From the NCBI GenBank assembly GCA_050633405.1, contig JBOEGL010000007.1, forward strand, positions 184,892 through 248,891: a DNA stretch of 64,000 bases, written 5' to 3'. The first letter of the stretch is position 1. Every line of letters begins with the position of its first letter. This document shows, in pieces, positions 1,400-56,148 of this stretch. The notes under the pieces are model-generated. The model was not told the origin of the DNA and did no database searches. It was given only the letters and a program-made list of their open reading frames with translations. Source of the DNA: Cognatishimia sp. (GTDB lineage Bacteria > Pseudomonadota > Alphaproteobacteria > Rhodobacterales > Rhodobacteraceae). The position numbers were made by a program, and so were the translations under genes.

Positions 1400-1476
1400 G
1401 CCGCCTTAGCTCAGTAGGTTAGAGCGCCTGATTGTGGATCAGGAGGTCCCCCGTTCGAGCCGGGGAGGTGGTACCA
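1400..1476 (+). tRNA. tRNA-His (GUG)
   Basis: Cloverleaf: acceptor GCCGCCT/AGGTGGT, D-arm GCTC..GAGC, anticodon arm CCTGA-TTGTGGA-TCAGG, T-loop GTTCGAG, encoded A-CCA end. Confidence 0.97.
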
Positions 1477-1507: not shown

Positions 1508-1571
1508 GATTTGTTCTTGACCCAAATACCCTGGGGAGGCTGAAACGTGTTTTCAGCCGGGGCGAAGCTCC
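1508..1571 (+). repeat. Dispersed structured intergenic repeat, copy 1
   Basis: Core TTTGTTCTTGACCCAAATACC (1510-1530), hairpin GGCTGAAA-CGTGT-TTTCAGCC, terminal GGGGC-GAA-GCTCC. The core recurs at 5371-5391 and 14643-14663 on the minus strand. Confidence 0.85.
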
Positions 1572-1580
1572 TCTCAAGAT

Positions 1581-1874
1581 CTAGTCGACCGTGATGGTTT
1601 GCTTCAGACTGCCGGTCAGTGCGTCAAAAATCAGAATGTGATTGTCTGCTGTGACCACGGCATACCAATCCTTGCCACGGGTAAAGGCCGTAGCTTTGGA
1701 CCCGTCCGGCAAGTCGATGGATGTCGGCATTTCTGGACCAGCGCCATAGAAACGGGTGACAAGCAGGCCAACCACCACTACAAGCCCGCCAATCATCACC
1801 ACCGTCAGCACTGTGATCAACTGGCGCAAAAACCGCAAATTTGCCGGTTCTACCGGTTCAGGAGTGTCATCCAT
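1581..1874 (-). CDS. Small membrane protein (DUF6476-like)
   Basis: One TM helix (LITVLTVVMIGGLVVVVGLLV) followed by a LPDG...AFTRG.DWYAVVT domain. Start at 1874 or 1880. Confidence 0.75.
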   Translation of the reverse strand: MDDTPEPVEPANLRFLRQLITVLTVVMIGGLVVVVGLLVTRFYGAGPEMPTSIDLPDGSKATAFTRGKDWYAVVTADNHILIFDALTGSLKQTITVD

Positions 1875-2904
1875 GGCCACCGCTCATGTTACGTTTCAAA
1901 TTGCGGACAACCCGCCTGCGCGTCTTGATAAAGCCTTGGCGCGCGATGTGCCAGCAGAAGCCGCGCTGTCTCGCACCAGAATGGCGCGGTTGATGGCCGA
2001 CGGTCATGTTAAGGTGAACGGCGCGATTGCCACCGACCCGAAAGCAAAGATCGCCGAGGGGGCTGAAGTGGTGATTGTGGTGCCGGTCGCGGATGAAAGC
2101 CATATCGGCCCTGAAAATATTCCCTTGGATGTTATTTTTGAAGATGACGATCTGATTGTGATCAATAAAAGTGCGGGCATGGTGGTGCATCCGGCCCCTG
2201 GCACGCCTAACGGCACTTTGGTGAATGCGTTATTACATCACTGTGGTGACACGCTGTCTGGGGTGGGCGGATCAAAGCGTCCGGGCATTGTTCACCGGAT
2301 TGATAAGGAAACCTCTGGTCTGTTGGTGGTGGCCAAAACCGATCGTGCTCATCATGGATTGGCGGCGCAATTTGAGAAACACACCGTCGAGCGCTATTAC
2401 AATGCAGTGGTCTATGGGGTGCCTGATGCGCATGATCCCAGATTGCGTGGTGTGCGTGGCGTGAATTTTGAGCCCGGTAATATTATGAAGATCACCACGC
2501 ATTTGGCGCGGCATAAGACCGATCGTCAAAGGCAGGCGGTGTTGTTTGAAGGCGGGCGCCATGCGGTCACTCGCTCGCGCATTGTCGAACCCTTTGGAAC
2601 TCCTGAAGTGGCCTCATTGATCGAATGCTGGTTGGAAACCGGTCGCACGCATCAGATCCGGGTGCATATGACCCATGCGGGTCATAGTTTGATTGGCGAT
2701 CCAACTTATGGCGGGCGGCGGAAGTTATCTGAAAAGGCGTTAAGTGTGCAGGGCGTTCAAGCGGCGCGCAATTTTCCACGTCAGGCACTACATGCGGCGG
2801 TTTTAGGATTTGTACATCCGGTCAGTAAAGAAGATTTGCGGTTTGAGGCACCATTGCCAGAGGACATGACAAACTTGATTGCGGCGCTGCGGAAGCCGAC
2901 CTGA
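1873..2904 (+). CDS. rluD: RluA family 23S rRNA pseudouridine synthase (RluD-like)
   Basis: N-terminal S4 domain, catalytic GIVHRIDKETSG, GRTHQIRVH, RQALHA motifs. Confidence 0.92.
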   Translation: MATAHVTFQIADNPPARLDKALARDVPAEAALSRTRMARLMADGHVKVNGAIATDPKAKIAEGAEVVIVVPVADESHIGPENIPLDVIFEDDDLIVINKSAGMVVHPAPGTPNGTLVNALLHHCGDTLSGVGGSKRPGIVHRIDKETSGLLVVAKTDRAHHGLAAQFEKHTVERYYNAVVYGVPDAHDPRLRGVRGVNFEPGNIMKITTHLARHKTDRQRQAVLFEGGRHAVTRSRIVEPFGTPEVASLIECWLETGRTHQIRVHMTHAGHSLIGDPTYGGRRKLSEKALSVQGVQAARNFPRQALHAAVLGFVHPVSKEDLRFEAPLPEDMTNLIAALRKPT

Positions 2905-3221
2905 GCACGCAAAGCTGACAATAAGCGCCGAATATGCTACATTTGGCAGTGAGGCCTTTTGCCCGGGACCTTCAGTCAAATGGACTGATTTAATTTAGTT
3001 TTCTGAGTTTCGGGCCGATATACAAAGGCAGTGTTTGGGTACAGACAGAATTTCCGTCTGTGGAAATATGCGTAAGCGATATGCGTTTTCGCATAGACTC
3101 TGCACTTTCGCACGCTGTTGAAAGATGTCACAAATTGCACAGCGACGTGAGCGCACTACCCTGTGATTGGCATTATGTGAATGCTGCGTTCACAATTAAT
3201 TAAGAAAAAATTGCTAGCCCG

Positions 3222-3250
3222 CTTGAAAGCCTGTTAGCGCCAACCTATCT
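3222..3250 (+). promoter_or_regulatory. RpoH-type promoter upstream of rpoH
   Basis: CTTGAA-N16-CCTATCT, 37 nt upstream of the ATG; matches the alphaproteobacterial RpoH consensus. Confidence 0.7.
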
Positions 3251-3287
3251 GGATGTTAAGCCTTTAAACATTAAGGGGGACGAGAAG

Positions 3288-4184
3288 ATGAGTAATTATA
3301 AAAATCTCCCGGCACCAACGCCGGAAGGCGGTTTGAACCGCTATATGCAAGAAATTCGGAAGTTCCCGCTGTTGGAACCCGAAGAAGAATACATGCTGGG
3401 CAAAGCCTGGGCCGAAAAAGAAGACACGGAAGCCGCTCATAAGATGGTGACAAGCCATCTGCGTTTGGCGGCCAAGATTGCCATGGGGTACCGTGGCTAT
3501 GGTCTGCCGCAGGCCGAAGTGATTTCCGAGGCCAACGTGGGCCTGATGCAGGCCGTGAAACGCTTTGACCCAGAAAAGGGCTTTCGTCTGGCTACCTATG
3601 CTATGTGGTGGATCCGTGCCTCCATTCAGGAATACGTGCTGCGCAGCTGGTCGATGGTCAAGCTTGGTACAACCTCGGCTCAGAAAAAGCTGTTCTTTAA
3701 TCTGCGTAAAGCCAAAGCCCGTATTGGGGCGCTGGAAGAAGGCGACATGCGTCCGGAAAATGTGCAGCGCATTGCTCATGATTTGGGTGTAACCGAAGAC
3801 GAAGTTGTCAGCATGAACCGCCGTTTGTCCGGTGGCGATGCTTCGCTAAACGCGACGGTCGGCTCCGAAGGCGAAGGCACCATGCAATGGCAGGATTGGC
3901 TGGAAGACGAGGATGCGGATCAGGCGGGCGACTATGAAGCCAAAAATGAGTTGGAAGCGCGCCGTGAGCTTTTGGCCGAGGCTATGGATGTGCTGAACGA
4001 CCGCGAAAAGGACATCTTGGTGCAGCGTCGTCTGCAAGACAAAGTGATCACACTCGAAGAATTGAGTGGTCAGTATGATGTCAGCCGTGAGCGTATTCGT
4101 CAAATCGAAGTGCGCGCGTTTGAAAAACTTCAGGTGCGTATGCGCGCCCTGGCCAGCGACAAAGGCATGCTTGCACGCGCCTAA
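3288..4184 (+). CDS. rpoH: RNA polymerase sigma-32 factor
   Basis: Sigma70 regions 2-4, RpoH box QKKLFFNLRKAK, C-terminal VSRERIRQIE. Confidence 0.97.
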   Translation: MSNYKNLPAPTPEGGLNRYMQEIRKFPLLEPEEEYMLGKAWAEKEDTEAAHKMVTSHLRLAAKIAMGYRGYGLPQAEVISEANVGLMQAVKRFDPEKGFRLATYAMWWIRASIQEYVLRSWSMVKLGTTSAQKKLFFNLRKAKARIGALEEGDMRPENVQRIAHDLGVTEDEVVSMNRRLSGGDASLNATVGSEGEGTMQWQDWLEDEDADQAGDYEAKNELEARRELLAEAMDVLNDREKDILVQRRLQDKVITLEELSGQYDVSRERIRQIEVRAFEKLQVRMRALASDKGMLARA

Positions 4185-4222
4185 ACCTCCCTCGGAGCGC
4201 CGATACCTCCAGCGATCCAAGG

Positions 4223-4252
4223 AAAAGCCCCAGCCTTTTGGCCGGGGCTTTT
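4223..4252 (+). terminator. Intrinsic terminator after rpoH (bidirectional-looking)
   Basis: AAAAGCCCC-AGCCTTTTGGC-CGGGGCTTTT. Confidence 0.75.
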
Positions 4253-4325
4253 GTCGTTTTTGTTGGCTTGTGCGGTCATGGCCAGCTGCTAGTGTTTGCG
4301 CAAACGTAAATTTGTGGAGGGCGTT

Positions 4326-5297
4326 ATGGAAACTGTCAAATGGGGCATTTTAGGAGCCAGTAAGTTTGCCAAGGAACATATGGGCCCAGCCATTCACGCC
4401 GCCGATGGGGCTGAGCTTGTGGCGCTCGCAACGTCTTCGGCAGAAAAAGTCGCGCCCTTTCTGGCGTTCTGTCCAAACCTCAAAACCCATGGCAGCTATG
4501 ATGCATTGTTGGCAGATCCGGAAATCGATGCGGTCTATATCCCATTGCCCAATCACATGCATGTGGAATGGGCCCTAAGAGCCATGGCTGCGGGCAAGCA
4601 TGTGCTTTGCGAAAAGCCGATGGCTTTATGCGCAGATGATTTTGCTAAATTGATCGCGGCCCGGGATGCTTCGGGTTTGCTGGCGGCCGAAGCCTATATG
4701 ATCGCCCATCATCCGCAGTGGCAATATGTGCGGCAATTGTTGGCAGATCACGAGATCGGCACGTTGCGGCATGTGACCGGGGCCTTTTCTTTTAACAATC
4801 AGGATCAACCAGAGAATATCCGTAATAAGAGCGACACAGGTGGCGGGGCACTACGTGATATTGGCGTTTACACGCTGGGTTCGGTGCGCTTGGCGACCGG
4901 GCAAGAGCCATGCGAAGTGGCTGCACGTATACGTTGGGAAAACGCTGTTGATGTTTTCTCGGACGTGCAGGCGCAATTTTCCGGGTTCAGCTATTCGGCC
5001 TATGTCAGCACCCGTATGAAGCAACATCAGGATATGGTGTTTCATGGCAGCCGTGGTCTGATCCGGTTGATTGCACCGTTTAATCCAGGCGTATTTGCCG
5101 AGGGGCAGGTGGTTTTACAGCGGGATGGGCAAGACGATGTCATCCGGCGTTTTACCGGGGTGAACCAATATAGATTACAGGTCGAGGCATTTGGGCGCTC
5201 TGTTCGGGATGGCGTGGCGTACCCCTGCGCTTTGGAGTTTTCGCGCGGCACCCAGAAGATGATGGACCAAGTATTTGCGGTGGCGCGAGATCTGTAA
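4326..5297 (+). CDS. Gfo/Idh/MocA family oxidoreductase
   Basis: WGILGAS Rossmann start, DAVYIPLPNHMH, GKHVLCEKP, GGGALRDIGVY. Confidence 0.92.
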   Translation: METVKWGILGASKFAKEHMGPAIHAADGAELVALATSSAEKVAPFLAFCPNLKTHGSYDALLADPEIDAVYIPLPNHMHVEWALRAMAAGKHVLCEKPMALCADDFAKLIAARDASGLLAAEAYMIAHHPQWQYVRQLLADHEIGTLRHVTGAFSFNNQDQPENIRNKSDTGGGALRDIGVYTLGSVRLATGQEPCEVAARIRWENAVDVFSDVQAQFSGFSYSAYVSTRMKQHQDMVFHGSRGLIRLIAPFNPGVFAEGQVVLQRDGQDDVIRRFTGVNQYRLQVEAFGRSVRDGVAYPCALEFSRGTQKMMDQVFAVARDL

Positions 5298-5313
5298 GTG
5301 GGTCTGTCATGTA

Positions 5314-5341
5314 TTCCAGCGACGTCAAGACGTCGCTGGAA
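5314..5341. terminator. Perfect 13-bp hairpin between convergent genes
   Basis: TTCCAGCGACGTC-AA-GACGTCGCTGGAA. Confidence 0.6.
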
Positions 5342-5344
5342 CGT

Positions 5345-5391
5345 GGCCGAAACGCTGTTTCGGCCCTTTGGGTATTTGGGTCAAGAACAAA
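5345..5391 (-). repeat. Dispersed structured intergenic repeat, copy 3
   Basis: Minus strand reads TTTGTTCTTGACCCAAATACCC (22/22 identical to 1510-1531), then hairpin GGCCGAAA-CAGCG-TTTCGGCC. Confidence 0.85.
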
Positions 5392-5399
5392 GCCGCTGT

Positions 5400-7220
5400 C
5401 TAGGCTTCCATCGCCTCAAGCTCATCGATCATGTCAGAAATCATCGACAGGCCTTTGTCCCAGAACTTTGGATCGCTGGCATCAAGGCCAAAGGGGGCCA
5501 GCAGGTCTTTGTGGTGTTTAGAGCCGCCAGCTTTGAGCATATCAAAGTATTTTTCTTCGAAGTCCTCGCCGCCTTCGGCGTAAACCGCATAGAGCGCGTT
5601 TACCAAGCCGTCGCCAAAGGCATAGGCATAGACGTAGAAGGGCGAATGCACGAAGTGGGGGATGTAAGCCCAAAAGGTGTCATAGCCATCCATAAATTCA
5701 AACGCAGGCCCTAGGCTTTCGGCCTGAACTGACATCCAAAGTGCGTTGATGCCTTCAGGGGTCAATTCGCCATCGGCGCGGGCGTCGTGCAATTTGCATT
5801 CGAAGTCATAAAACGCGATTTGACGCACAACCGTGTTGATCATGTCTTCGACTTTTCCAGCCAACAGCACTTTGCGCTGTTCTTGGGTTTCGGCCTTGTC
5901 CAGCATCTTGCGGAAAGTCAGCATTTCGCCAAAGACAGAGGCGGTTTCCGCCAATGTCAGCGGTGTGGAGGACAGCATTTCGCCCTGTTCCGCAGCCAAT
6001 ACCTGGTGCACCCCATGGCCGAGTTCATGCGCCAGAGTCATCACGTCGCGTGGTTTGCCAAGGTAATTTAGCATCACATAGGGATGTACGTTGGTCACCG
6101 TTGGGTGGGCGAATGCGCCCGGGGCTTTGCCGGGTTTGACCTCGGCGTCGATCCAGCCTTTGGTGAAAAACGGCTCTGCTATCTCGGCCATGCGCGGATC
6201 GAAGGCGGCATAGGCTTCCATTACCGTGCTTTGGGCTTCGCTCCATGGTACAATACGGGTGTCTTCCATGGGCAGCGGCGCGTTGCGGTCCCAAACCTGC
6301 ATGACGTCAAGTCCCAGCCATTTGCGTTTGAGTTCATAATATCGGTGGCTGAGCTTGGGGTAGGCGGCGACAACCGCGTTGCGCAGCGCCTCCACCACTT
6401 CCGGCTCTACATCGTTTGACAAATGCCGCCCGGCCTGTGGTGACGGCATTTTGCGCCAACGGTCCATGACTTCTTTTTCTTTGGCCTGGGTGTTGTGCAC
6501 GCGGGCAAAGGTTTTGATGTTTGCCCCCAGCACGCGGGCGATTTCGCGGGATGCGGCTTCGCGTTTGCTGCGGTCTTGTTCAGTCAGGAAATTCAGGGTG
6601 GCTTCGATGTTCAGCTTTTCGCCTTCCATCTCAAATTCCAACCCGGCAATGGTTTCGTCAAACAGGCGCTCCCATGCGTCGCCCACCACGCCCAGATCGT
6701 GCAGGAACTTTTCCAGCTCGTCAGACAGTTGGTGGGGTTTCATGGCGCGGATGCGATCAAAAACAGGTTTGTAACGTGCTAGATCGGAGTTTTGAGCAAA
6801 CATTGCGGTCAGTTTGTCATCGTCAATGCGGTTCAGTTCCAGAGTGAAAAATACCAGCGGAGTCGAGAAATCTGTCAGTGCCTCTTGCATGTTGGACATA
6901 AATTGTGCGCGTTCTGCGTCGACCGTAACCTGATAATAGCGCAGGCCAGCATAAGACATGATACGGCCAGAAATCTGGCTGATTTTTTCGTTGCGCTGCA
7001 CGCAGGTCAAAAGGCCGGCGGCATCCAGATCGGCCAGTTTATCTTCGTAATCGGCCGCAAATGACGCGCATTCGCCCTCGAGCCACTCTAAGTCTTTGTC
7101 TAGTTCAGGCGCATCTGGGGAGGTGTATAGATCAGATAGATCCCATTCTGGCAGGCCCCCCAATCCTTCACCTCCGGCAGTGGCATTGGCGTCGCGGACG
7201 GGGAAGGGCAGGTTCAGCAT
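5400..7220 (-). CDS. pepF: M3 family oligoendopeptidase F
   Basis: HELGHGVH zinc motif, LAETASVFGE, WAYIPHF..PFYVYAY. Confidence 0.93.
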   Translation of the reverse strand: MLNLPFPVRDANATAGGEGLGGLPEWDLSDLYTSPDAPELDKDLEWLEGECASFAADYEDKLADLDAAGLLTCVQRNEKISQISGRIMSYAGLRYYQVTVDAERAQFMSNMQEALTDFSTPLVFFTLELNRIDDDKLTAMFAQNSDLARYKPVFDRIRAMKPHQLSDELEKFLHDLGVVGDAWERLFDETIAGLEFEMEGEKLNIEATLNFLTEQDRSKREAASREIARVLGANIKTFARVHNTQAKEKEVMDRWRKMPSPQAGRHLSNDVEPEVVEALRNAVVAAYPKLSHRYYELKRKWLGLDVMQVWDRNAPLPMEDTRIVPWSEAQSTVMEAYAAFDPRMAEIAEPFFTKGWIDAEVKPGKAPGAFAHPTVTNVHPYVMLNYLGKPRDVMTLAHELGHGVHQVLAAEQGEMLSSTPLTLAETASVFGEMLTFRKMLDKAETQEQRKVLLAGKVEDMINTVVRQIAFYDFECKLHDARADGELTPEGINALWMSVQAESLGPAFEFMDGYDTFWAYIPHFVHSPFYVYAYAFGDGLVNALYAVYAEGGEDFEEKYFDMLKAGGSKHHKDLLAPFGLDASDPKFWDKGLSMISDMIDELEAMEA

Positions 7221-7355
7221 AGGGGCCTCTTGGGTCAGGAATTCTGTTAGGTGTCAGATAGGCAGAGCAGGGGGCAAGGTGCAAGAGGCGGAGTGTTTTA
7301 AACTTGGTTTTGACGGGGCAGCGGTTAAGTTGAAGAGAGAGCAGGAGGCAGTCCT

Positions 7356-8192
7356 TTGAGATTTGTACGATTTGGTGAGATTGGGCAGGAACTACCGGGT
7401 ATTTTGGATGCCCAGGGGCAGGTTCGCAACCTCTCGGGGGTGGTCCCGGATATCGCAGGTGACGTTTTGGGGCACTTGGGGGATATCGACGTTGGTGAAT
7501 TGCCAGTTGTTCCTGGGAATCCGCGTTTGGGGCCCCCGGTGGGCGACACGGGTAAATTCATTTGCATCGGCTTGAATTACCGGGATCATGCCAAAGAGGC
7601 GGGCATGCCCATTCCTGAAGAGCCCATTGTGTTTATGAAGGCGACCAGCGCCATTGGCGGGGCAAATGACCCCATCGTGTTGCCGCTTGGATCAGAGAAA
7701 GGCGACTGGGAAGTTGAGCTGGGGGTGGTGATCGGCAAGACCGCCAAATATGTCAGCGAAGCTGAAGCGTTGGATTATGTGGCGGGCTATTGCGCCGTCA
7801 ACGATGTGTCAGAACGTGGGTTTCAGATAGAACGCGGTGGGCAATGGACCAAGGGCAAAAGCTGTGACAGCTTTGGCCCGCTGGGGCCTTGGTTGGTGAC
7901 GCCCGATGAAATTGGCGATCCGCAGGCCCTGGACATGTCCTTGTGGATCAATGGTGATTTGCGCCAAAGCGGATCGACATCGACAATGATCTTTCCTGTG
8001 GCCTATGTGATTTCCTACCTCAGCCAAATGATGCGCTTGGAGCCGGGTGATGTGATTGCAACCGGGACGCCGCCCGGAGTGGGCATGGGCATGAAACCAC
8101 CGCTATATTTGCAAGCTGGGGACGTGGTCGAACTGGAAATCCAAGGCTTGGGGCGTCAGCGTCAACGCGTCATGCGGGACGAAGTGCTGTAA
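7356..8192 (+). CDS. Fumarylacetoacetate hydrolase family protein
   Basis: GKFICIGLNYRDH, DWEVELGVVIG, NDVSER, GDVIATGTPPGVG. TTG start with GGAGG RBS. Confidence 0.92.
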   Translation: MRFVRFGEIGQELPGILDAQGQVRNLSGVVPDIAGDVLGHLGDIDVGELPVVPGNPRLGPPVGDTGKFICIGLNYRDHAKEAGMPIPEEPIVFMKATSAIGGANDPIVLPLGSEKGDWEVELGVVIGKTAKYVSEAEALDYVAGYCAVNDVSERGFQIERGGQWTKGKSCDSFGPLGPWLVTPDEIGDPQALDMSLWINGDLRQSGSTSTMIFPVAYVISYLSQMMRLEPGDVIATGTPPGVGMGMKPPLYLQAGDVVELEIQGLGRQRQRVMRDEVL

Positions 8193-8198
8193 GATACT

Positions 8199-9152
8199 CT
8201 ATGATCTGGGCGCTAAAAACAGCGCTGCAATCTTGCGGGTCACATCGCCACGTATGGTTGGATTGTCCATCAATACTTCGTGTTCGCCTGCTGGCACCAT
8301 GTCTAATGTGCCATCCTCCCATGATGTCATGCGGCTGGTAATTGCACCTGGGCAAACGATGTTTTCATCGGTGCCAAGAAAGGTAAGACATGGGATTTGA
8401 GGGGCAGGGTGGCGGCGCAGATCGCTGCATTCGCGCAATGCCTGTGACAGCCAGCGCATGGTTGGGCCGCCAATCATCAGCTGTGGCTGAGCGCGCGCAT
8501 GCGATTGCAGCCGGGCATACATGTCCCGGTCTTTGGTCAGTTGGTTGTCTTCAAAGGCGGTGTCCAAAACATAGGTTTCATGTTTGGTGCCGGGGGCCAA
8601 CCAATGACCGATGCCTAAAAGGCTGGCAATTCCGCTGAGTAATACGGCTATCGGGCGCAAAACCTTGTTGAGACCGATGTCCCACATGGGGCCGGTGAAG
8701 GCTGCGGCTTGCACTGGCAGGCCGTCATAAAGCGCGCGCAAACCGATGCAGCCACCCATGGAGTGGCCCATTAGAAAATAGGGTTCTGGCAAATTCAGTG
8801 CTTTGGCGCTGCGCAACATGGCGGCAACATCAAGCTGATAATCTTGGAAATTGACAACATGGCCCGACATCACGTTGCCGGTCAGCCGATCCGCCAAACC
8901 CTGACCGCGCCAGTCGATGGAAAATGTGGCCAGACCTAAATCTGCAAACCGTCCTGCGATTTCTGCATATTTTTCAATATACTCCGTGCGCCCCGGAAAC
9001 AGCAAAACCGTGCCTTTGGTCTTGCCTGCGGCATCGTTGCTTTGCCAAGCGGCCACGCGCAGCCGCACCCCGTCTGTTGCCAAGGTCCAATAGGCCTCGG
9101 CTTCTGGTTCACCTGAAATAACCGGAAAAAACGGCGCGCGGTCCAGACCCAT
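8199..9152 (-). CDS. Alpha/beta hydrolase (lysophospholipase L2-like)
   Basis: PGRTEYIEKY, DWRGQGLA, GHSMGG nucleophile elbow, HEVLM. Confidence 0.9.
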   Translation of the reverse strand: MGLDRAPFFPVISGEPEAEAYWTLATDGVRLRVAAWQSNDAAGKTKGTVLLFPGRTEYIEKYAEIAGRFADLGLATFSIDWRGQGLADRLTGNVMSGHVVNFQDYQLDVAAMLRSAKALNLPEPYFLMGHSMGGCIGLRALYDGLPVQAAAFTGPMWDIGLNKVLRPIAVLLSGIASLLGIGHWLAPGTKHETYVLDTAFEDNQLTKDRDMYARLQSHARAQPQLMIGGPTMRWLSQALRECSDLRRHPAPQIPCLTFLGTDENIVCPGAITSRMTSWEDGTLDMVPAGEHEVLMDNPTIRGDVTRKIAALFLAPRS

Positions 9153-9442
9153 TACGACAGTGCCGACGCAAGTTTCATTGCCATGCCCATGTCACCATCA
9201 ACAGACAGCTTACCGCTCATGAAGGCAGAGGTTGGGTTGATATCCCCTTCAAGGATAGCCTGAAACACATCTGCGTCAGCCGTCAGCGTTACATCTGCAT
9301 CGTCATCGCTGGCTCGCACACCTTCGCCGTCGATGATAAGCGCGCCTTCGCCTTCGATTACAAATTTTGCAGATCCATCTATCCCGGCGTCTCCGAGTTT
9401 GGCTGCCAGTGCGTCTACCGCTGCCGCTACAATATCGCTCAT
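9152..9442 (-). CDS. SCP2 sterol-binding domain protein
   Basis: P..AFMSGKLSVDGDMGMAMKL C-terminal SCP2 signature. Confidence 0.9.
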   Translation of the reverse strand: MSDIVAAAVDALAAKLGDAGIDGSAKFVIEGEGALIIDGEGVRASDDDADVTLTADADVFQAILEGDINPTSAFMSGKLSVDGDMGMAMKLASALS

Positions 9443-9525
9443 TCGTAATCTTCCTTTGAATTGCCGCTTATTTCCCCCGCGCCGGACTAGTAAATCCCGA
9501 TGCGCAGGTTACATTCAAGAGTGTT

Positions 9526-10086
9526 ATGCGCTTGTTATCTATTAATCTCAAACTTGTCGTTGCGGCAGCCTTTGTTACCCTCATGTGCGGTGTGGGCAGC
9601 GTGAATGCAAGCGACCGATTGACGGATCTCTTGGCCGAGCTCAAATCCGCCGAAGCTATTGAAGCGGTGAAAATCACCAAGGAAATTCGTTTGGAGTGGG
9701 AGAAATCCGGATCGGCCGCTGCGGATCTGTTGCTGAGACGTGGGCGGGATGCAGTGGAAACCGGTGATTTTGATGCGGCCATAGAGCATTTTTCAGCTTT
9801 GGTGGATCACGCGCCAGAATTTGCAGAGGGCTGGGTCGCGCGGGCAAGCGCCTTTGTGCAGATTGGGCTTTTGGGGCCGGCGGTGTCGGATTTAGAACAG
9901 GCTTTAGAGCTGAATCCAATGCATTTTGAAGCCATAAACGGTCTTGGCGTGATCTTAGAGATGATTGACCGCCCTGAGGAAGCCTATGAAGCCTATCTGT
10001 TGGTCATGGCTATACATCCGACCCATCCGGTCGTAACACAGGCTTTACAACGTCTAGAGCCCATGGCCAAAGGCCAAAAACTCTGA
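9526..10086 (+). CDS. Exported tetratricopeptide repeat protein
   Basis: Signal peptide; TPR-like A..DLEQALELNP.HFEAINGLG. Confidence 0.85.
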   Translation: MRLLSINLKLVVAAAFVTLMCGVGSVNASDRLTDLLAELKSAEAIEAVKITKEIRLEWEKSGSAAADLLLRRGRDAVETGDFDAAIEHFSALVDHAPEFAEGWVARASAFVQIGLLGPAVSDLEQALELNPMHFEAINGLGVILEMIDRPEEAYEAYLLVMAIHPTHPVVTQALQRLEPMAKGQKL

Positions 10087-10101
10087 AAAATTAAAAGGCG
10101 C

Positions 10102-12903
10102 ATGGACATGTCCTCAGCAGGGCGGATCACAGCGGTTTTGGGGCCGACCAATACAGGTAAAACCCATTTGGCGATTGAGCGGATGCTGGGACATCGCACG
10201 GGGGTCATTGGCCTGCCGCTGCGACTGTTGGCACGCGAAGTCTATGACAAAATCGTTGCGGCGCGGGGGCCAAACGTCGTTGCGCTAATGACCGGCGAAG
10301 AGCGGATTGTGCCGCCGCGGGCGCAATATTGGGTCTGTACGGTCGAATCTATGCCAGAGGGCATGGGTTGTGATTTTCTGGCCGTGGATGAAATCCAGCT
10401 TTGTGCAAACCCGGAACGGGGGCATGTGTTTACCGACCGGTTGTTGCGGGCACGGGGGCTGCATGAAACCATGTTTATGGGCTCTGACACGATGCGCGGG
10501 GCGATTGCGGCGTTGGTGCCCGGCGTGCAATTTGATCGGCGAGAACGCATGTCGACCCTTAGCTATGCAGGCAGTCGCAAGATCAGCCGCATGCAGCCGC
10601 GCAGCGCGATTGTCGGGTTTTCTGTTGATAACGTCTATGCCATCGCAGAATTGCTGAAACGCCAAAAGGGCGGGGCGGCTGTGGTGATGGGTGCGCTAAG
10701 CCCGCGCACCCGGAATAAACAGGTCGAGTTGTATCAGAACGGCGATGTTGACTTTCTGGTGGCCACAGATGCGATCGGCATGGGCCTGAATCTCGACATC
10801 GACCACGTGGCCTTTTCCAGTACCCGTAAATTTGATGGCCGTCGCATGCGCGAAATCATGCCGAACGAGTTGGCGCAGATCGCCGGCCGCGCTGGGCGGG
10901 GCATGAGCCACGGAACCTTTGGCGTCACCGGAGAGGCGCGCCCCTTGGAGGATGAGGTGGCGCAGGCGATCATGGATCATCGCTTTACGCCCCTAAATAA
11001 GCTGAATTGGCGCAACGCCGCGTTGAATTTTGCCACGGTTGAAGCTTTGATCCATTCGCTTCAGGTTGCACCGCAAGACATGTTGCTGATGAAGTCCCGC
11101 GAAGCAGATGACCTGATGGTGCTTAATACATTGGCGCGTGACGCTGAAATTCGCGCCCGCGCAACCGATCCGCAATCTGTGCGCCTGTTATGGGATGTTT
11201 GTCGGGTGCCAGATTTTCGGGGGATCAGCCATAACGAGCATGCCAGCCTCTTGCAGAGCCTCTTTGGGTACCTACATCAACGGGGAACTGTGCCCTTTGA
11301 TTGGTTCGCGCGACAGGTGAAACGAATCGATCGGGTTGACGGAAATATTGATGCGTTGTCAAAAAGATTGGCATTTATCCGCACTTGGACTTATGTGGCG
11401 CAGCGAAATGGTTGGATTGATGACGAAAACCATTGGCGCGGCGAGACGCGCGCTGTAGAAGATCGCCTGTCAGACGCATTACATGCGAAACTGACGGAAA
11501 AATTTGTGGACCGCCGAACGTCTGTTTTACTCCGGCGGCTCAAACAGAAGGAGGCCCTTTTGGCCGATGTGAATGATAAGGGTGAAGTGACCGTCGAAGG
11601 TGAATTCGTAGGTCGCTTGGATGGGTTCCGGTTTCAGGCTGACAAAAGCGCTGAAGGCGCTGAGGCCAAGACGTTGCGTCAGGCAAGCTTGGCAGCTTTG
11701 GCACCGCAATTCCATTTGCGGGCGGATCGCTTTTACAACGCACCCGATACTGAAATTGATTACACCGAACAGGGTGGCCTGATGTGGGGCGAATATGCGG
11801 TTGGCAAATTGGTGGCCGGCGCGGACCCACTGAAACCATCTGTGCAAGTTTTTGTTGATGATGAAGCCGGTCCTGACGTTGCGCAAAAAGTAGAGCGCCG
11901 TTTGCAGCATTTCATTGATCGCAAGATTGCGGCGCTTTTTGAACCGCTGTTGAACCTGTCACGTGACGAAGAACTGTCAGGTTTGGCCCGCGGTTTTGCG
12001 TTTCGCATGGTTGAAGCGCTGGGGGTGATCCCACGCGGTGACGTTGCCGTCGAAGTGAAAGAGTTGGACCAAGATGCCCGTGGCGCATTGCGCAAACATG
12101 GCATTCGCTTTGGTCAGTTCACGATCTTTATGCCCCTGCTTTTGAAGCCAGCACCGACCCGCTTGCGGTTGGTTTTGTGGTCCTTGCACAAAAACCTGGA
12201 TGTGTTTCCAGAATCGCCACCTCCGGGCTTGGTGACCGTGCCTGCGGGTGAACAAACACCGGCAGGATACCACGCGATGGCGGGCTATCGTGCCGCAGGC
12301 GAGCGTGCGATTCGTATTGATATGCTGGAACGCCTTGCAGATATGCTGCGGTCTGAGGACAGCCGTGGGGGCTTTGAAGCCAACCCGGATATGTTGTCGA
12401 TCACCGGCATGACACTAGAGCAATTCGCAGCGCTTATGGATGGGCTGGGATATAAGGCTGAAAAAGGCGAGCGCGCCAAGGTGAAGCCTGTGGTTGCAGC
12501 CACAGCCGAAGCGGATGCTGCAGCCGATGCATCGGCGGAAACGCCAGCCGCTGACGCCGCAGATACTCCACAAGAGGACGCAGCAACGCCCGTTGAAGAG
12601 GTCGAGGCTGGAGAGGCCGATGCCGCACCAGCAGAGCCCGAGGTCGAGGTGTTTTATACCTTTACATGGGGTGGCCGCGCCAACCGCCAGAACAACCGCA
12701 GAGGTGGCCAACAAGGCGCTCGTCGTGACGGCAATGCAGGTCAGAGCAAGCCAGGTGGAAAACCTCGGGGCAAGCCACGTGGGAAAGGCAAGCCCGGTCA
12801 GGACGGTGCTAAGAAATACAGCGCCCGTCCACCCAAAAAAGAAAAGCCAATTGATCCGGACAATCCGTTTGCTGCGGCTTTGATGGGGCTGAAAACCAAG
12901 TGA
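10102..12903 (+). CDS. Suv3-like SF2 helicase (MgpS-like)
   Basis: GPTNTGKT Walker A, VDEIQL, VATDAIGMGLN, QIAGRAGR; acidic linker and basic C-terminal tail. Confidence 0.88.
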   Translation: MDMSSAGRITAVLGPTNTGKTHLAIERMLGHRTGVIGLPLRLLAREVYDKIVAARGPNVVALMTGEERIVPPRAQYWVCTVESMPEGMGCDFLAVDEIQLCANPERGHVFTDRLLRARGLHETMFMGSDTMRGAIAALVPGVQFDRRERMSTLSYAGSRKISRMQPRSAIVGFSVDNVYAIAELLKRQKGGAAVVMGALSPRTRNKQVELYQNGDVDFLVATDAIGMGLNLDIDHVAFSSTRKFDGRRMREIMPNELAQIAGRAGRGMSHGTFGVTGEARPLEDEVAQAIMDHRFTPLNKLNWRNAALNFATVEALIHSLQVAPQDMLLMKSREADDLMVLNTLARDAEIRARATDPQSVRLLWDVCRVPDFRGISHNEHASLLQSLFGYLHQRGTVPFDWFARQVKRIDRVDGNIDALSKRLAFIRTWTYVAQRNGWIDDENHWRGETRAVEDRLSDALHAKLTEKFVDRRTSVLLRRLKQKEALLADVNDKGEVTVEGEFVGRLDGFRFQADKSAEGAEAKTLRQASLAALAPQFHLRADRFYNAPDTEIDYTEQGGLMWGEYAVGKLVAGADPLKPSVQVFVDDEAGPDVAQKVERRLQHFIDRKIAALFEPLLNLSRDEELSGLARGFAFRMVEALGVIPRGDVAVEVKELDQDARGALRKHGIRFGQFTIFMPLLLKPAPTRLRLVLWSLHKNLDVFPESPPPGLVTVPAGEQTPAGYHAMAGYRAAGERAIRIDMLERLADMLRSEDSRGGFEANPDMLSITGMTLEQFAALMDGLGYKAEKGERAKVKPVVAATAEADAAADASAETPAADAADTPQEDAATPVEEVEAGEADAAPAEPEVEVFYTFTWGGRANRQNNRRGGQQGARRDGNAGQSKPGGKPRGKPRGKGKPGQDGAKKYSARPPKKEKPIDPDNPFAAALMGLKTK

Positions 12904-12905
12904 TT

Positions 12906-12942
12906 AAAATGGGGCGTGCAGTTGATGCTGTACGCCCTTTTT
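12906..12942 (+). terminator. Intrinsic terminator after the helicase gene
   Basis: GGGCGTGCAG-TTGATG-CTGTACGCCC-TTTTT. Confidence 0.65.
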
Positions 12943-12970
12943 GTATCCAGAGCTTGGGGATAACTCTCTC

Positions 12971-13348
12971 GTGAACGACGCCCCGCCCAAACTACGGATA
13001 GATAAATGGCTATGGCACGCCCGTTTCTTTAAGACACGCAGCTTGGCTGCCAAAATTGTCACGACTGGCAAGGTGCGGGTGAACGCTCAAAAGATTGCCA
13101 AATCCAGCTTTTTGATCAGCCCAGGCGATGTGCTGACTTTTGCCCAGGCCTCAGAAATCCGAGTCGTGCGCGTCGAAGCCCTGGGAACGCGGCGGGGGCC
13201 TGCCTCAGAAGCACAGCTTTTGTACTTTGATATGAGTGAACCCAAAGAAAAAGTTCCGGATGCACCGCGATTTGAAGGAAAAGGACGTCCAAGCAAGCGA
13301 GATCGTCGCAATCTCACCCTTATGAAAAACAGGCAGCTTGAAGATTAG
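12971..13348 (+). CDS. S4 RNA-binding domain protein (Hsp15/HslR-like)
   Basis: RIDKWLWHARFFKTRSLA...GRPSKRDRR; GTG start assumed. Confidence 0.88.
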   Translation: MNDAPPKLRIDKWLWHARFFKTRSLAAKIVTTGKVRVNAQKIAKSSFLISPGDVLTFAQASEIRVVRVEALGTRRGPASEAQLLYFDMSEPKEKVPDAPRFEGKGRPSKRDRRNLTLMKNRQLED

Positions 13349-13398
13349 CGCGCCTTGAATTAGCTAGGCTCTAACAATTCTGTATATCGAGACGCCCC

Positions 13399-13737
13399 AT
13401 GACCTATGTTGTTACTGACAACTGCATTGCTTGCAAATACACCGACTGCGTTGAAGTCTGCCCGGTGGATTGTTTTTACGAAGGCGAAAATACGCTGGTG
13501 ATTCACCCAGATGAATGCATCGACTGCGGTGTATGTGAGCCAGAATGCCCTGCGGACGCGATCCGCCCGGACACCGAGCCGGATATGGAAAAATGGGTCG
13601 AGTTTAACCGAAAATACGCAGATCAGTGGCCGGTTATTATCTCCAAGAAAGATCCAATGCCTGACGCAGAAGAGCGCGACGGTGAAGCGGGTAAAATGGA
13701 GAAGTATTTCTCTGAAGCACCAGGCGAAGGCGGGTAA
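13399..13737 (+). CDS. fdxA: 7Fe ferredoxin FdxA
   Basis: [19 protein letters not shown]...[12 protein letters not shown]. Confidence 0.95.
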
Positions 13738-14022
13738 ACGCGGCAACGCGTTGGGGGCTTGTCGATTTGTAGTGTAAACTTGGTTTAGCAAGCTGACTTT
13801 AGAGGGAAACACGAGGTTTCCCTTGAGGCGCTTCTATTGTTGCGAATTTTGTGTTATATTTGCGTTACAAATGAATAGAAACACCTGATGCCATCCCGAG
13901 AGCTAAGGCGATTTGCCCGGCCTAGGATGGTTTTTTGCGCCAAAGTGACCTCTGCTGCGGAAATTTGATTCTCCGCGCGCTGGGTTTATCAGCTTTTGGG
14001 GCGCTCTGTTAGGAAGGACGAC

Positions 14023-14532
14023 ATGAGCAAGTCGAAGAAAAATGAGTTTCGCCCGGACGATTTTGTTGTCTACCCAGCGCATGGCGTTGGGCAGATTGTA
14101 TCCATTGAAGAACAGGAAATCGCCGGAATTGAGCTAGAACTTTTTGTTATTTCTTTTGAGAAAGACAAGATGACGTTGCGGGTGCCTACCCACAAAGCCA
14201 CAGAAATTGGCATGCGCGGGCTGAGTTCGCCGGATGTGATTAGTCAGGCGATGAAAACCCTGAAGGGCAAGGCCAAGGTCAAGCGTGCCATGTGGTCGCG
14301 TCGGGCGCAGGAATATGAACAAAAGATCAACTCTGGGGATCTGATAGCGATTGCCGAAGTTGTGCGCGACTTGCACCGCACTGACGATCAGCGCGAGCAA
14401 AGCTATTCTGAGCGTCAGTTGTATGAAGCGGCCCTTGAACGCCTGACACGTGAAGTGGCAGCGGTTGCCGGTGGCGACGAAGTTCTGGCGGCCAAGCAGG
14501 TGGATGAGGTTTTGACCGCCCGCGCTGCCTAA
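14023..14532 (+). CDS. carD: CarD family transcription factor
   Basis: VVYPAHGVG, WSRRAQEYEQKINSG, SYSERQLYEAA; AGGAAGG RBS. Confidence 0.95.
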   Translation: MSKSKKNEFRPDDFVVYPAHGVGQIVSIEEQEIAGIELELFVISFEKDKMTLRVPTHKATEIGMRGLSSPDVISQAMKTLKGKAKVKRAMWSRRAQEYEQKINSGDLIAIAEVVRDLHRTDDQREQSYSERQLYEAALERLTREVAAVAGGDEVLAAKQVDEVLTARAA

Positions 14533-14558
14533 GGGTATTCAGATCTTATAAAATGGAG

Positions 14559-14588
14559 CCGCTCAGATCTGTCTGGGCAGTTTTTTTT
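14559..14588 (+). terminator. Intrinsic terminator after carD
   Basis: GCTCAGA-TCTG-TCTGGGC followed by T8. Confidence 0.7.
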
Positions 14589-14665
14589 GGGGGGGGGGGC
14601 TTTGCCCCCATCGGTGAATCCGAGTTTCACCGCTTCCCCCAGGGTATTGGGATCAAGAACAAATC
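14589..14665 (-). repeat. Dispersed structured intergenic repeat, copy 2
   Basis: Minus strand reads GATTTGTTCTTGATCCCAATACCCTGGGG (27/29 identical to 1508-1536), hairpin CGGTGAA-ACTCGGA-TTCACCG, terminal GGGGGC-AAA-GCCCCC. Confidence 0.85.
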
Positions 14666-14702: not shown

Positions 14703-15251
14703 TTAGCCCGGGCTTTCCATCACCACGGCCAGCACGGCAGTTGTGGTCAGGGCCTCATAGGCGTGTGGCACATCAGCTGGAAAGCGATAGTAATCGCCGG
14801 GCAAAAGCTGTTCCAGTTGGTCAGTCGGTCCGGTCTGGACCTCTCCAGAAATCACATAGACATGTTCGACGGTGCCTTTTGGATGGGCCTCGGCTTTTCG
14901 CGTTGACCCTTGTCGCAGCACAACGCGATAAAGGTCGCGGATGCGGCCAGGGGGGGATTTATCCAGCAATTGGGTCTGATAGTCAGCCATTTCAGAGGCC
15001 ACGCCTTGCCCGTCTTCGGCGCGGATCAGTTTGATCTCGTTTGATGGCATCTCAAATAGATGGCTGAAGGGCACACCCAGAACGTTCGCGATGGCCCAAA
15101 GGGTTTCAATGCTGGGATTGCCCTGACCTGATTCAAGTTGAGACAGTGTGGATTTCGCCAGTCCGGCCTGTGTTGCTAAGGCTGACAGGCTGAGCCCAAC
15201 ACGGTGTCTTTCACGTTGGATCGCGCGGGCAATTAGGACTGACGGGGTCAT
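14703..15251 (-). CDS. XRE-family HTH + cupin transcriptional regulator
   Basis: LSALATQAGLAKSTLSQLESGQGNPSIETLW HTH; H..GTVEH.YV..G...F.AD.PH.Y cupin. Confidence 0.9.
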   Translation of the reverse strand: MTPSVLIARAIQRERHRVGLSLSALATQAGLAKSTLSQLESGQGNPSIETLWAIANVLGVPFSHLFEMPSNEIKLIRAEDGQGVASEMADYQTQLLDKSPPGRIRDLYRVVLRQGSTRKAEAHPKGTVEHVYVISGEVQTGPTDQLEQLLPGDYYRFPADVPHAYEALTTTAVLAVVMESPG

Positions 15252-54993: not shown

Positions 54994-56148
54994 ATGCAAT
55001 TTCGTCTCACCGGGGCACAGGTTCTCATGGCAGATGCCTTGCAGGATCACGACCTGAACATCGCCCACGGGCGGATCAGCGACCAGCCGCAATCCCGCGA
55101 GATTGACCTGTCGGGCTTTCAGATCCTACCGGCCATTGTTGACATCCATGGTGATGGGTTTGAACGTCATCTGGCCCCCCGGCGCGGCGCGATGAAAGAT
55201 CTTGGTCAGGGTCTGATATCTGCAGATGCGGAACTGGCCAGCAATGGCATCGCCACCGCCACACTGGCGCAGTTTTACAGCTGGGAAGGCGGCATGCGCG
55301 GTCCGGAATTTGCCGCACGTTTCCTCAAGGCCCACGACAAAGCCAAGCCCCACATGCTGACCGACACGCTGATACAGCTGCGGTTTGAAACCCATATGCT
55401 GGATCACTACGCCGCCTTTGCCGAACTGGTACAGGCCCATCAGGTCCCCTATGTGGTCTTTAACGATCATCTGCCCCACGCTGCTCTGGCCAAAGGCAAA
55501 CGCCCTCCGCGCCTCACCGGTCAGGCCCTCAAAGGCGGTCGCAGCCCCGAAGCGCACCTGGCCCTCTTGCAAGCGCTCTATGCGCGGCGCGATGAGGTGC
55601 CCGCCCAACTGGCCCGGCTTGCGGCAGGCTTTGCACAGAACAATATCCGCATGGGCAGCCACGATGATGCCACCCGCGCCCAACGTCAAAGCTTTCAAAC
55701 CATGGGGCTGACCCTGTCAGAATTCCCCGAAACCTCAGAGGCCGCCACCGCCACACATGACTTTGGCGGCCATATCATTCTGGGCGCGCCAAATGTGGTG
55801 CGCGGCGGCTCCCATTCTGGCAATGTGGCGGCTCAGGATCTGATCGCCGACGGGCTCTGTGACGCGCTGGCCTCTGATTATCACTATCCGGCACTGCGGC
55901 AGGCGGTCTTCAAACTGTCAGACGAAGCTGTGCTGAGTTTTGCCGCGGCCTGGGCGCTGATCTCTAGCGGGTCTGCTAAACTGCTAGGCCTGACCGATCG
56001 CGGCACGCTCAGCAAAGGGCAACGCGCCGACTTCATTGTTCTTGATCCAAATACCCGTCGCATCGAGGCCACATTCAGCAACGGTCATGTCAGTTATTTG
56101 GCCGGCGAAGCGGCGCGACGTTTTTTTGCACTCACGGAAGCCCCATAA
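54994..56148 (+). CDS. phnM: PhnM-like amidohydrolase (alpha-D-ribose 1-methylphosphonate 5-triphosphate diphosphatase paralog)
   Basis: DIHGDGFERH, SHDD, GAPNVVRGGSHSGN, LASDYHYP, RADF. Confidence 0.85.
   Translation: MQFRLTGAQVLMADALQDHDLNIAHGRISDQPQSREIDLSGFQILPAIVDIHGDGFERHLAPRRGAMKDLGQGLISADAELASNGIATATLAQFYSWEGGMRGPEFAARFLKAHDKAKPHMLTDTLIQLRFETHMLDHYAAFAELVQAHQVPYVVFNDHLPHAALAKGKRPPRLTGQALKGGRSPEAHLALLQALYARRDEVPAQLARLAAGFAQNNIRMGSHDDATRAQRQSFQTMGLTLSEFPETSEAATATHDFGGHIILGAPNVVRGGSHSGNVAAQDLIADGLCDALASDYHYPALRQAVFKLSDEAVLSFAAAWALISSGSAKLLGLTDRGTLSKGQRADFIVLDPNTRRIEATFSNGHVSYLAGEAARRFFALTEAP

Follow-up and report, generated by a model that had tools for sequence, protein, structure and literature searches.

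Downstream of a 22-nt repeat core that occurs three times in a 64,000-nt stretch of the Cognatishimia sp. genome (assembly GCA_050633405.1, contig JBOEGL010000007.1, positions 184,892 to 248,891 of the forward strand; hereafter the window), a first-pass annotation had noticed hairpins that differ in sequence and keep their pairing, and had read them as a functional single-stranded DNA (ssDNA) or RNA fold and not as a decaying duplication. Are these hairpins maintained as structures, and to what kind of element do they belong? The three hairpin strings were found where they had been placed, each with one occurrence in the window (1538-1558 on the + strand, 5345-5365 and 14612-14632 on the - strand) and none expected by chance, at 3-9 nt on the 3' side of the cores (Table 1). 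The T-A to C-G change between copies 1 and 3 and the second hairpins that end copies 1 and 2 (GGGGCGAAGCTCC and GGGGGCAAAGCCCCC) are also present as described. The family to which the three copies belong numbers about 90 members; copy 3 has a tail type unlike that of copies 1 and 2. We are confident that this mosaic repeat family is under constraint. Overall we favour, with moderate confidence, the reading that the hairpins are tail modules of short mosaic extragenic repeats that occur across the Roseobacteraceae and resemble the repetitive extragenic palindromes and bacterial interspersed mosaic elements (REP/BIME).

The genome that holds the window (G000, a 3.6-Mb draft of 53.7% G+C and about 91% assembly completeness, in which the window is C7:184892-248891) contains two head types. 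The H1 head, NTTGTKCTTGA-N3-AAATACCC, is 22 nt long and AT-rich and has 49 pattern matches in this genome (51 by nhmmer). The H2 head, (C)TTCAYCTTTYC-N2-AAAATACTC, occurs about 40 times and is followed by the same downstream modules. Examples of H2 sites outside the window are C5:237111/237270, C7:472225 and C3:217790. A stricter rescan yielded 87 elements, 47 with H1 and 40 with H2. Three tails follow the heads. Tail A is made, in this order, of one base, a first G-run, a linker (TGA, TGAA or A), hairpin 1, a second linker (GA, AGA or none) and hairpin 2, which itself consists of a second G-run plus C, a loop of 3-5 nt, and G plus a C-run; short forms of tail A lack hairpin 1. Tail B is a GCC-GNA-GGC mini-hairpin (CCGCCGGAGGC, TCGCCGAAGGC or GCGCCGCAGGC), and tail C is AAA followed by locus-specific sequence with no fixed hairpin. 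Copies 1 and 2 of the window are H1 heads with tail A, and copy 3 is an H1 head with tail C, behind which lies a hairpin of the GAAAC-N3-GTTTC kind. Heads and tails assort independently (20 A, 12 B and 13 C behind H1; 17 A, 8 B and 9 C behind H2). Most copies are single, with a few inverted head-to-head doublets whose hairpins point outwards (C4:150839/150867, C3:9609/9644 and C1:20011/20044), and only four gaps between elements are shorter than 200 nt.

Regarding the fold itself, the z-scores of copy 1 were -1.4 to -1.7 as RNA and -2.4 as DNA, and those of copies 2 and 3 ranged from -2.9 to -4.1 (-3.8 for copy 3). As the fold energy of copy 1 is modest, energy alone is insufficient for a claim of structure, and covariation is the decisive evidence. 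It was measured on a plain MAFFT alignment of 34 tail-A copies, which takes in both tail-A copies of the window, further H1 and H2 copies of the same genome, orthologues from the congener G005 (about 82% identical, as measured over one 5-kb stretch) and one copy from G010; 500 shuffles and a 3' partner slid by 1-3 columns served as controls. Over the two helices, standard pairs filled 92.5% of the cells compared to 80.4% after shuffling, 59 cells compared to 18 were changed on both sides, and 27 further standard pair types were seen compared to 17, none of the 500 shuffles matching any of these measures. When the 3' partner was slid, pairing was at most 50.5%. Changes on both sides affected 8 of the 10 pairs of hairpin 1 (column pair 35-53 reads UA in 14 copies, GC in 10, CG in 3 and AU in 1), and the inner A-U pairs and hairpin 2 were nearly invariant. 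The kept pairing first noticed on three strings thus extends, far above shuffled controls, over many copies.

It should be noted that the same stem alleles, among them CGTCGAAAC/GTTTCGACG and GCGGTGAAA/TTTCACCGC, were found behind both head types and at loci that are not related, so that swapping of whole modules could yield part of the compensation. Some differences between orthologues also look like replacement by a common allele (for example CGCCGAAAC..GTTTCGGCG at C1:308793, GCGGTGAAATC..GATTTCACCGT in G005). Part of the compensatory signal may therefore come from module swapping, gene conversion or quasi-palindrome correction and not from stepwise selection. By contrast, the persistence of G.T and G.A pairs in the stems, together with a head that stays 96% identical next to a drifting spacer, argues against a purely mutational origin.

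Comparison with G005, which holds 52 H1 copies, places these elements in time. As many as 47 of the 49 H1 copies of G000 have a counterpart there with matching flanks. Identity between orthologues was 96.1% at the fixed head positions and 70.9% in the N3 spacer, compared to 72% in the non-coding 40-nt flanks and 80% in the distal, mostly coding flanks; in the tails it was about 88% at paired and about 82% at unpaired positions, as computed by hand from pair counts. Among 21 orthologous tail-A pairs, 246 base pairs were unchanged, and when both sides had changed, pairing was kept in 8 cases and broken in 1. Changes on one side kept pairing through G.U in 6 cases and broke it in 15. One partner of a head-to-head doublet has decayed in G000 (C1:139975) and is intact in G005 (L118), so that not all copies are maintained. 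Head sequence and stem pairing are nevertheless conserved well above the neutral level, and the elements are inherited vertically at fixed sites. Since they are old, fixed in place and constrained, a decaying duplication is ruled out, and chance or local duplication is likewise excluded by the genome-wide counts and the shuffles. The strong covariation, the orthology of nearly all sites and the 8 compensatory double changes against 1 breaking one bear out the first-pass annotation in its claim of a maintained single-strand fold. Its further claim of selection on structure is supported with two caveats: the most constrained part is the unstructured head, and the recurrence of stem alleles may explain some of the compensation. 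As it proposed, the fold may act as ssDNA or as RNA. As the head is more conserved between species than mostly coding flanks, some factor must read it.

The position of the elements relative to genes was determined with a crude codon-usage gene caller (3,163 genes, 86% coding). Eighty of the 87 elements are intergenic, with 27 in convergent, 47 in co-directional and 6 in divergent spacers, when intergenic length predicts 18%, 57% and 25%, respectively. Convergent spacers are thus enriched about two-fold and divergent ones depleted about three-fold. Moreover, the head starts no more than 10 nt past a stop codon of the same sense in 15 of 50 cases. Neighbouring element pairs in G000 enclose unrelated gene sets, and no analogue of a gene for a REP-associated tyrosine transposase (RAYT) flanked by inverted elements was seen among them. 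The family is modular, long stable in its positions, biased towards gene ends, absent by preference from promoter regions and without a link to RAYT.

By analogy with enterobacterial REP/BIME, these repeats would fold stably as single strands where transcription units end, with the head as the recognition site of a putative factor, protein or nucleic acid. In such a position they could protect mRNA 3' ends from exonucleases, and they might hinder read-through between converging or adjacent genes. We consider this REP-like role on transcripts plausible but somewhat doubtful, as several observations weigh against it. In co-directional spacers orientation is unbiased (23 sense, 24 antisense), where a role in one RNA sense predicts a bias, and polarity relative to GC skew or the replication strand is equally lacking (32 of 79). 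Non-Watson-Crick pairs in the stems favour the head-to-tail strand whatever the direction of the genes (G.T 6 compared to A.C 0; G.A 8 compared to T.C 3, misaligned rows dropped), which points to the head-to-tail DNA strand or to transcription of the element itself and not to a through-running mRNA. These mismatch numbers are small; together with the absent orientation bias they lean towards a fold on one DNA strand, the head-to-tail one. Also, the tails lack U-tracts, and a terminator consensus scan called none of the three window elements. A plain hairpin model leaves the match in length between the two G-runs of tail A, described below, unexplained. Lastly, no factor that binds the head was identified. 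A comparison by eye with consensus sites gave no fit: IHF, LexA (GTTC-N7-GTTC), FNR, sigma-70, sigma-54, RpoH, boxA, parS and dif sites were all rejected. For boxA there is a weak likeness (UGUUCUUGA compared to UGYUCUUUAACAA), which is contradicted by the placement at gene 3' ends in both orientations.

Other origins were weighed against the same observations. The elements could be inert remnants of a selfish non-autonomous element, whose stems would stay compensatory through gene conversion or template-switch quasi-palindrome correction and not through host selection. The recurrence of stem alleles at unrelated loci and behind both heads, the free assortment of heads and tails, the lineage-specific heads (see below), which imply past bursts or homogenisation, the doublet partner decayed in G000 only and the one-sided stem changes, which are not enriched for pairing, all fit this explanation. 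It would however need selection or very frequent conversion to account for a fixed head far more identical than mostly coding distal flanks beside an N3 spacer at the neutral level; quasi-palindrome correction would have removed the imperfect G.T and G.A stems that persist, nearly all sites were retained since the species split, and no transposase candidate was found. We regard it as unlikely, though less so than the explanations that follow. Ordinary Rho-independent terminators that share sequence by chance would explain the GC-rich hairpins at gene 3' ends and the enrichment between converging genes, and on the reverse strand a head-derived UAUUU(UU) does follow the hairpins. This explanation is very unlikely: the forward strand has no U-tract after the tails, 4-5 nt separate the last stem from UAUUU on the reverse strand, the consensus scan calls none of the window elements, many copies are trailed by a separate canonical terminator, and a 22-nt head at 96% identity is no feature of terminators. 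Near the window copies, the sole terminator called is such a separate hairpin, at the carD end (14561-14588, with T8 after it on the + strand), adjoining copy 2. A structured, conserved and covarying fold on one strand might suggest that the elements are separate small-RNA genes or cis-regulatory RNAs such as riboswitches or attenuators, but this deserves very little credence given some 90 copies with interchangeable tails, some of them without any hairpin, next to unrelated genes and depleted from gene 5' regions, and with no conserved promoter or terminator. The Rfam scan was negative, with only the tRNA-His at the gathering threshold and nothing over the elements at E values up to 5. Mobilisation by a RAYT (Y1 transposase), as in a REP/REPIN population, would agree with the extragenic hairpin repeats, the occasional inverted head-to-head doublets and the long vertical persistence. 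Yet the GTAG tetranucleotide is lacking and the conserved part is not the palindrome; no PF01797 (Y1_Tnp) match was found in G000, whose assembly is about 91% complete, and across 201 genera the genomes with a Y1_Tnp match number 5 of the 48 that carry the element compared to 17 of the 153 that do not, and 11 of the 12 genomes with at least 20 copies have none, which makes this origin scarcely credible.

Tail A follows a further rule, which bears on a reading at the level of ssDNA. The first G-run is unpaired in every minimum-energy fold, and its length equals that of the second in 29 of 32 cases in G000 (13 expected by permutation), 21 of 23 in G005 (11 expected), 24 of 29 in G096 (15 expected) and 35 of 40 in ten further genera (18 expected). 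Run sets of 4/4/4, 5/5/5 and 6/6/6 coexist inside single genomes; in G000 rho was 0.94 between run 1 and run 2 and 0.74 between run 2 and its Watson-Crick partner. In one orthologous pair all three runs have changed together, from 4/4/7 to 3/3/3. Tail A could thus be a class I purine-motif intrastrand triplex, with G-run 1 bound in reverse-Hoogsteen fashion to the duplex of G-run 2 and the C-run and with hairpin 1 in the connecting loop, that would act in replication, recombination or recognition by DNA enzymes. Both the equality of lengths across these genomes and the joint change of the three runs fit such a triplex, and stem mismatches favour the G-rich strand whatever the transcription. 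The linkers often prolong the mirror symmetry (GGGG-TG ... GA-GGGG with CCCC-T). GNA triloops closed by C:G, as in tail B, form very stable DNA mini-hairpins, which also speaks for a fold in ssDNA. The order of the blocks is that of class I, namely third strand, purine arm and pyrimidine arm (Holder et al. 2015, PMC4666352), and purine-motif triplexes do not form in RNA (PMC4666352). By contrast, the runs of tail A measure 3-7 nt, mostly below the stems of 6-15 nt searched in that study with loops of 1-6 nt (PMC4666352), and tails B and C carry the same conserved head with no G-runs. The 4/4 and 5/5 classes partly follow linker subfamilies, so that ancestry explains part of the correlation, and the copies show no preference for either replication strand. 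The same length rule is expected if either G-run pairs with the C-run in Watson-Crick fashion; this alternative pairing, or shared subfamily ancestry, may account for the match. The linkers TGA..GA and TGAA..AGA would, moreover, permit sheared G.A pairs in tandem on top of hairpin 1. The triplex, and a DNA-level structure of its kind in general, seems improbable to us. The stronger proposition, that tail A represents a new Roseobacteraceae-wide class of intrastrand triplexes with a covarying hairpin in the first loop and an AT-rich head, at about 40-85 fixed sites per genome, would make it a DNA-level signal in ssDNA (replication, recombination, transfer) and not in RNA; we consider it improbable as well.

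We return to the favoured reading, that of mosaic extragenic repeats, and compare it with the closest known systems. The REP/BIME of Enterobacteriaceae are likewise short extragenic repeats in tens to hundreds of copies, mosaics of hairpin units and non-palindromic motifs that occupy gene 3' ends and the spacers of converging genes, keep their sites from one related species to the next, and have covarying stems. Demonstrated functions of REP are mRNA protection and the binding of gyrase, IHF and Pol I. The present elements resemble BIME in that two heads and three tails combine independently and in that 80 of 87 copies are extragenic with a bias towards gene ends. Unlike in REP/BIME, the best-conserved part is a non-palindromic AT-rich head of 22 nt, the tails are interchangeable and some lack a hairpin, the rule that links G-run, G-run and C-run has no REP counterpart, and neither a GTAG-type tetranucleotide nor a RAYT is associated: in place of a palindrome preceded by GTAG, hairpin 1 is preceded by the head, a G-run and a TGA or A linker. 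The RIME of Rhizobiaceae are reportedly alphaproteobacterial intergenic mosaic repeats composed of palindromes and conserved linear segments; they come from a different bacterial family, and we know of no sequence similarity between the two, no comparison having been run. Miniature inverted-repeat transposable elements (Correia/NEMIS, RUP and ERIC) are also small non-coding repeats, often beside genes and able to affect transcripts, whereas here the two ends differ (head and tail) and terminal inverted repeats are lacking. Target-site duplications were not seen at the copies inspected, and a comparison of G000 with G005 revealed no insertion polymorphism (47 of 49 sites shared). REPIN-RAYT systems of Pseudomonas and Enterobacteria (PMC3116915, PMC3337134) share the long-lived vertical populations, the lineage-specific variants and some inverted doublets; by contrast, carriage here is independent of Y1 transposases, most copies are singletons, and the doublets are head-to-head with the hairpins outward. 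The BoxC/TMECO triplex repeats (Holder et al. 2015, PMC4666352) are G/C-rich and extragenic too, and one of their strands has a C-block and two G-blocks that match in length, in the purine-motif arrangement. They differ in block order (class II in TMECO, class I here) and in block length (9 nt compared to 3-7 nt), and in the present elements the first loop usually holds a hairpin of 20-30 nt and the repeat bears an AT-rich head. The elements lack the TMECO consensus CCCTCNCCC..GGGNGAGGG.

Regarding the distribution of the family, the looser pattern CTTG-N4-AAATAYCY-N-GGGG was scanned in 201 genera of the same bacterial family, with the reversed pattern as control. It was found in at least 48 of them, at up to 85 copies per genome, and the control gave 0 everywhere. 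A scan of 185,579 species genomes for the exact H1 core, by contrast, returned no more than some 55 single matches, approximately the chance number by a hand estimate, in a set from which the window's own genome and its nearest relatives were perhaps left out; among 60 relatives it occurs only in G005 and G010, the latter with the variant ..AAATACCT. Genomes carry a head variant of their own, for example CTTTCATCTTGCC-NN-AAATACCT or CTTCTTCTTGGC-NN-AAATATCC, and H2-like heads are the form found in the congeners G009 and G002 and in Leisingera. Such lineage-specific variants show past multiplication or homogenisation of the family within genomes. The spacer beside pepF illustrates this turnover: its element is of the H1 type in G000 and G005, G009 and G002 have two H2-like copies head to head at this place, G012 has a plain hairpin, and in G010 no element can be recognised. 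From these comparisons the family turns over slowly, with the H1 type expanded or homogenised in one sub-lineage. Copies also occur on plasmid or chromid records of Leisingera, Tritonibacter mobilis and Marinibacterium; the Leisingera plasmid copy, on the sole record whose annotation was examined, lies unannotated between two converging genes. A separate observation concerns G096, from another genus, where 85 tail-A copies (loci L148-L177) include about ten head-to-head doublets and several near-identical tails, which suggests a more recent multiplication there than in G000.

Literature searches on Rhodobacteraceae repeats, on REPIN/RAYT and on the motif string returned no description of this family, and a systematic stem-loop survey (PMC2267715) contains no mention of any Rhodobacterales genus looked for. 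The family itself thus seems not to have been described in the literature searched, whereas its kind, that of mosaic extragenic repeats, is known. The Roseobacteraceae rank with the most abundant and best-studied bacteria of the sea, and yet a repeat family with tens to about 100 copies per genome, present in a quarter or more of the sampled genera, is absent from Rfam. Clear structural predictions that can be tested follow from its stems and from the three matched G/C runs. If the elements do shape mRNA 3' ends, they would be relevant to the reading of roseobacter transcriptomes and to the engineering of roseobacters; should the triplex prove true instead, bacteria would have a second, independent example of conserved repeats that fold into intrastrand triplexes. 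In addition, the elements are useful as markers for strain typing and synteny.

The features of the three copies are collected in Table 1.

Table 1. Repeat elements and associated features in the window (positions counted from its first letter)
Feature	Position	Strand	Remark
tRNA-His gene	1400-1476	+	ARAGORN and Rfam RF00005; copy 1 lies on the same strand, 33 nt downstream
Copy 1, head, H1 type, TTTGTTCTTGA-CCC-AAATACCC	1510-1531	+	
Copy 1, T, G-run 1 (GGGG) and linker A	1532-1537	+	length of G-run 1 equals that of the G-arm of hairpin 2
Copy 1, hairpin 1, GGCTGAAA-CGTGT-TTTCAGCC	1538-1558	+	
Copy 1, hairpin 2, GGGGC-GAA-GCTCC (GGGGCGAAGCTCC)	1559-1571	+	one G.T pair
Copy 3, head, H1 type	5370-5391	-	8 nt past the stop codon of the M3 oligopeptidase gene (5400-7220, -)
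Copy 3, hairpin, GGCCGAAAC-AGC-GTTTCGGCC	5345-5366	-	AAA before it, no G-runs ('AAA' tail type)
Additional 13-bp near-perfect hairpin directly behind copy 3, GTTCCAGCGACGT-CTTG-ACGTCGCTGGAAT	5313-5342	-	locus-specific, outside the family consensus
Copy 2, head, H1 type with two mismatches, TTTGTTCTTGATCCCAATACCC	14642-14663	-	39 nt past the stop codon of the helix-turn-helix (HTH)-cupin regulator gene (14703-15251, -)
Copy 2, T, G-run 1 (GGGGG) and linker AAG	14633-14641	-	
Copy 2, hairpin 1, CGGTGAA-ACTCGGA-TTCACCG	14612-14632	-	
Copy 2, hairpin 2, GGGGGC-AAA-GCCCCC (GGGGGCAAAGCCCCC, 14609-14595)	14589-14609	-	C-run prolonged to 11 C, then A8
Head-like 22-mer in the amidohydrolase gene (54994-56148)	56035-56056	+	native coding sequence (..IVLDPNT..)

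All three copies are flanked by converging genes: tRNA-His and the DUF6476 gene for copy 1, GFO/IDH/MocA oxidoreductase and M3 oligopeptidase genes for copy 3, and carD and the HTH-cupin regulator gene for copy 2. Each has an orthologue in G005. In that of copy 1, the head is identical save for the N3 spacer, the stem is kept with a changed loop, and hairpin 2 reads GGGGC-AAA-GCCCC. The orthologue of copy 3 keeps the GCC.AAACAGCGTTTCGGC core inside a longer stem, an outer stem of 11 bp being added to the family hairpin, and lacks the additional 13-bp hairpin found behind copy 3. In the orthologue of copy 2, GGTGAAAC-CCT-GTTTCGCC, a T-A pair has turned into T.G. The homopolymer pair that ends copy 2, C11 followed by A8 (14581-14599 in - reading), is prone to slippage or assembly error; at this place the G005 orthologue has just CCCC followed by AAAACAAAA. 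A composite transposon bounded by copies 1 and 3 was also considered and rejected, the enclosed genes (DUF6476, pseudouridine synthase, an RpoH-like sigma factor and the oxidoreductase) being syntenic in congeners that have no H1 head.

The 22-mer within the amidohydrolase gene matches the degenerate H1 head perfectly (ADFIVLDPNTRRIEA), with a genome-wide chance of about 1e-4 by a hand estimate. The homologues in eight congeners align with no insertion, and seven of them have other codons and residues at this site, G005 being identical; the 22-mer is therefore native coding sequence. The match may have arisen through gene conversion from H1 elements, or the H1 head may have been born from the amidohydrolase gene. 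A view of the head as a coding remnant was rejected: one frame does read FVLDPNT, but the amidohydrolase copy is native, the N3 spacer is not codon-aligned, and the other frames contain TGA or TAA. Finally, next to copy 1, the DUF6476 gene (1581-1880, -) overlaps the longest-ORF start (ORF, open reading frame) of the pseudouridine synthase gene (1756-2904, +) by about 125 nt, and the true start of the latter probably lies further downstream.

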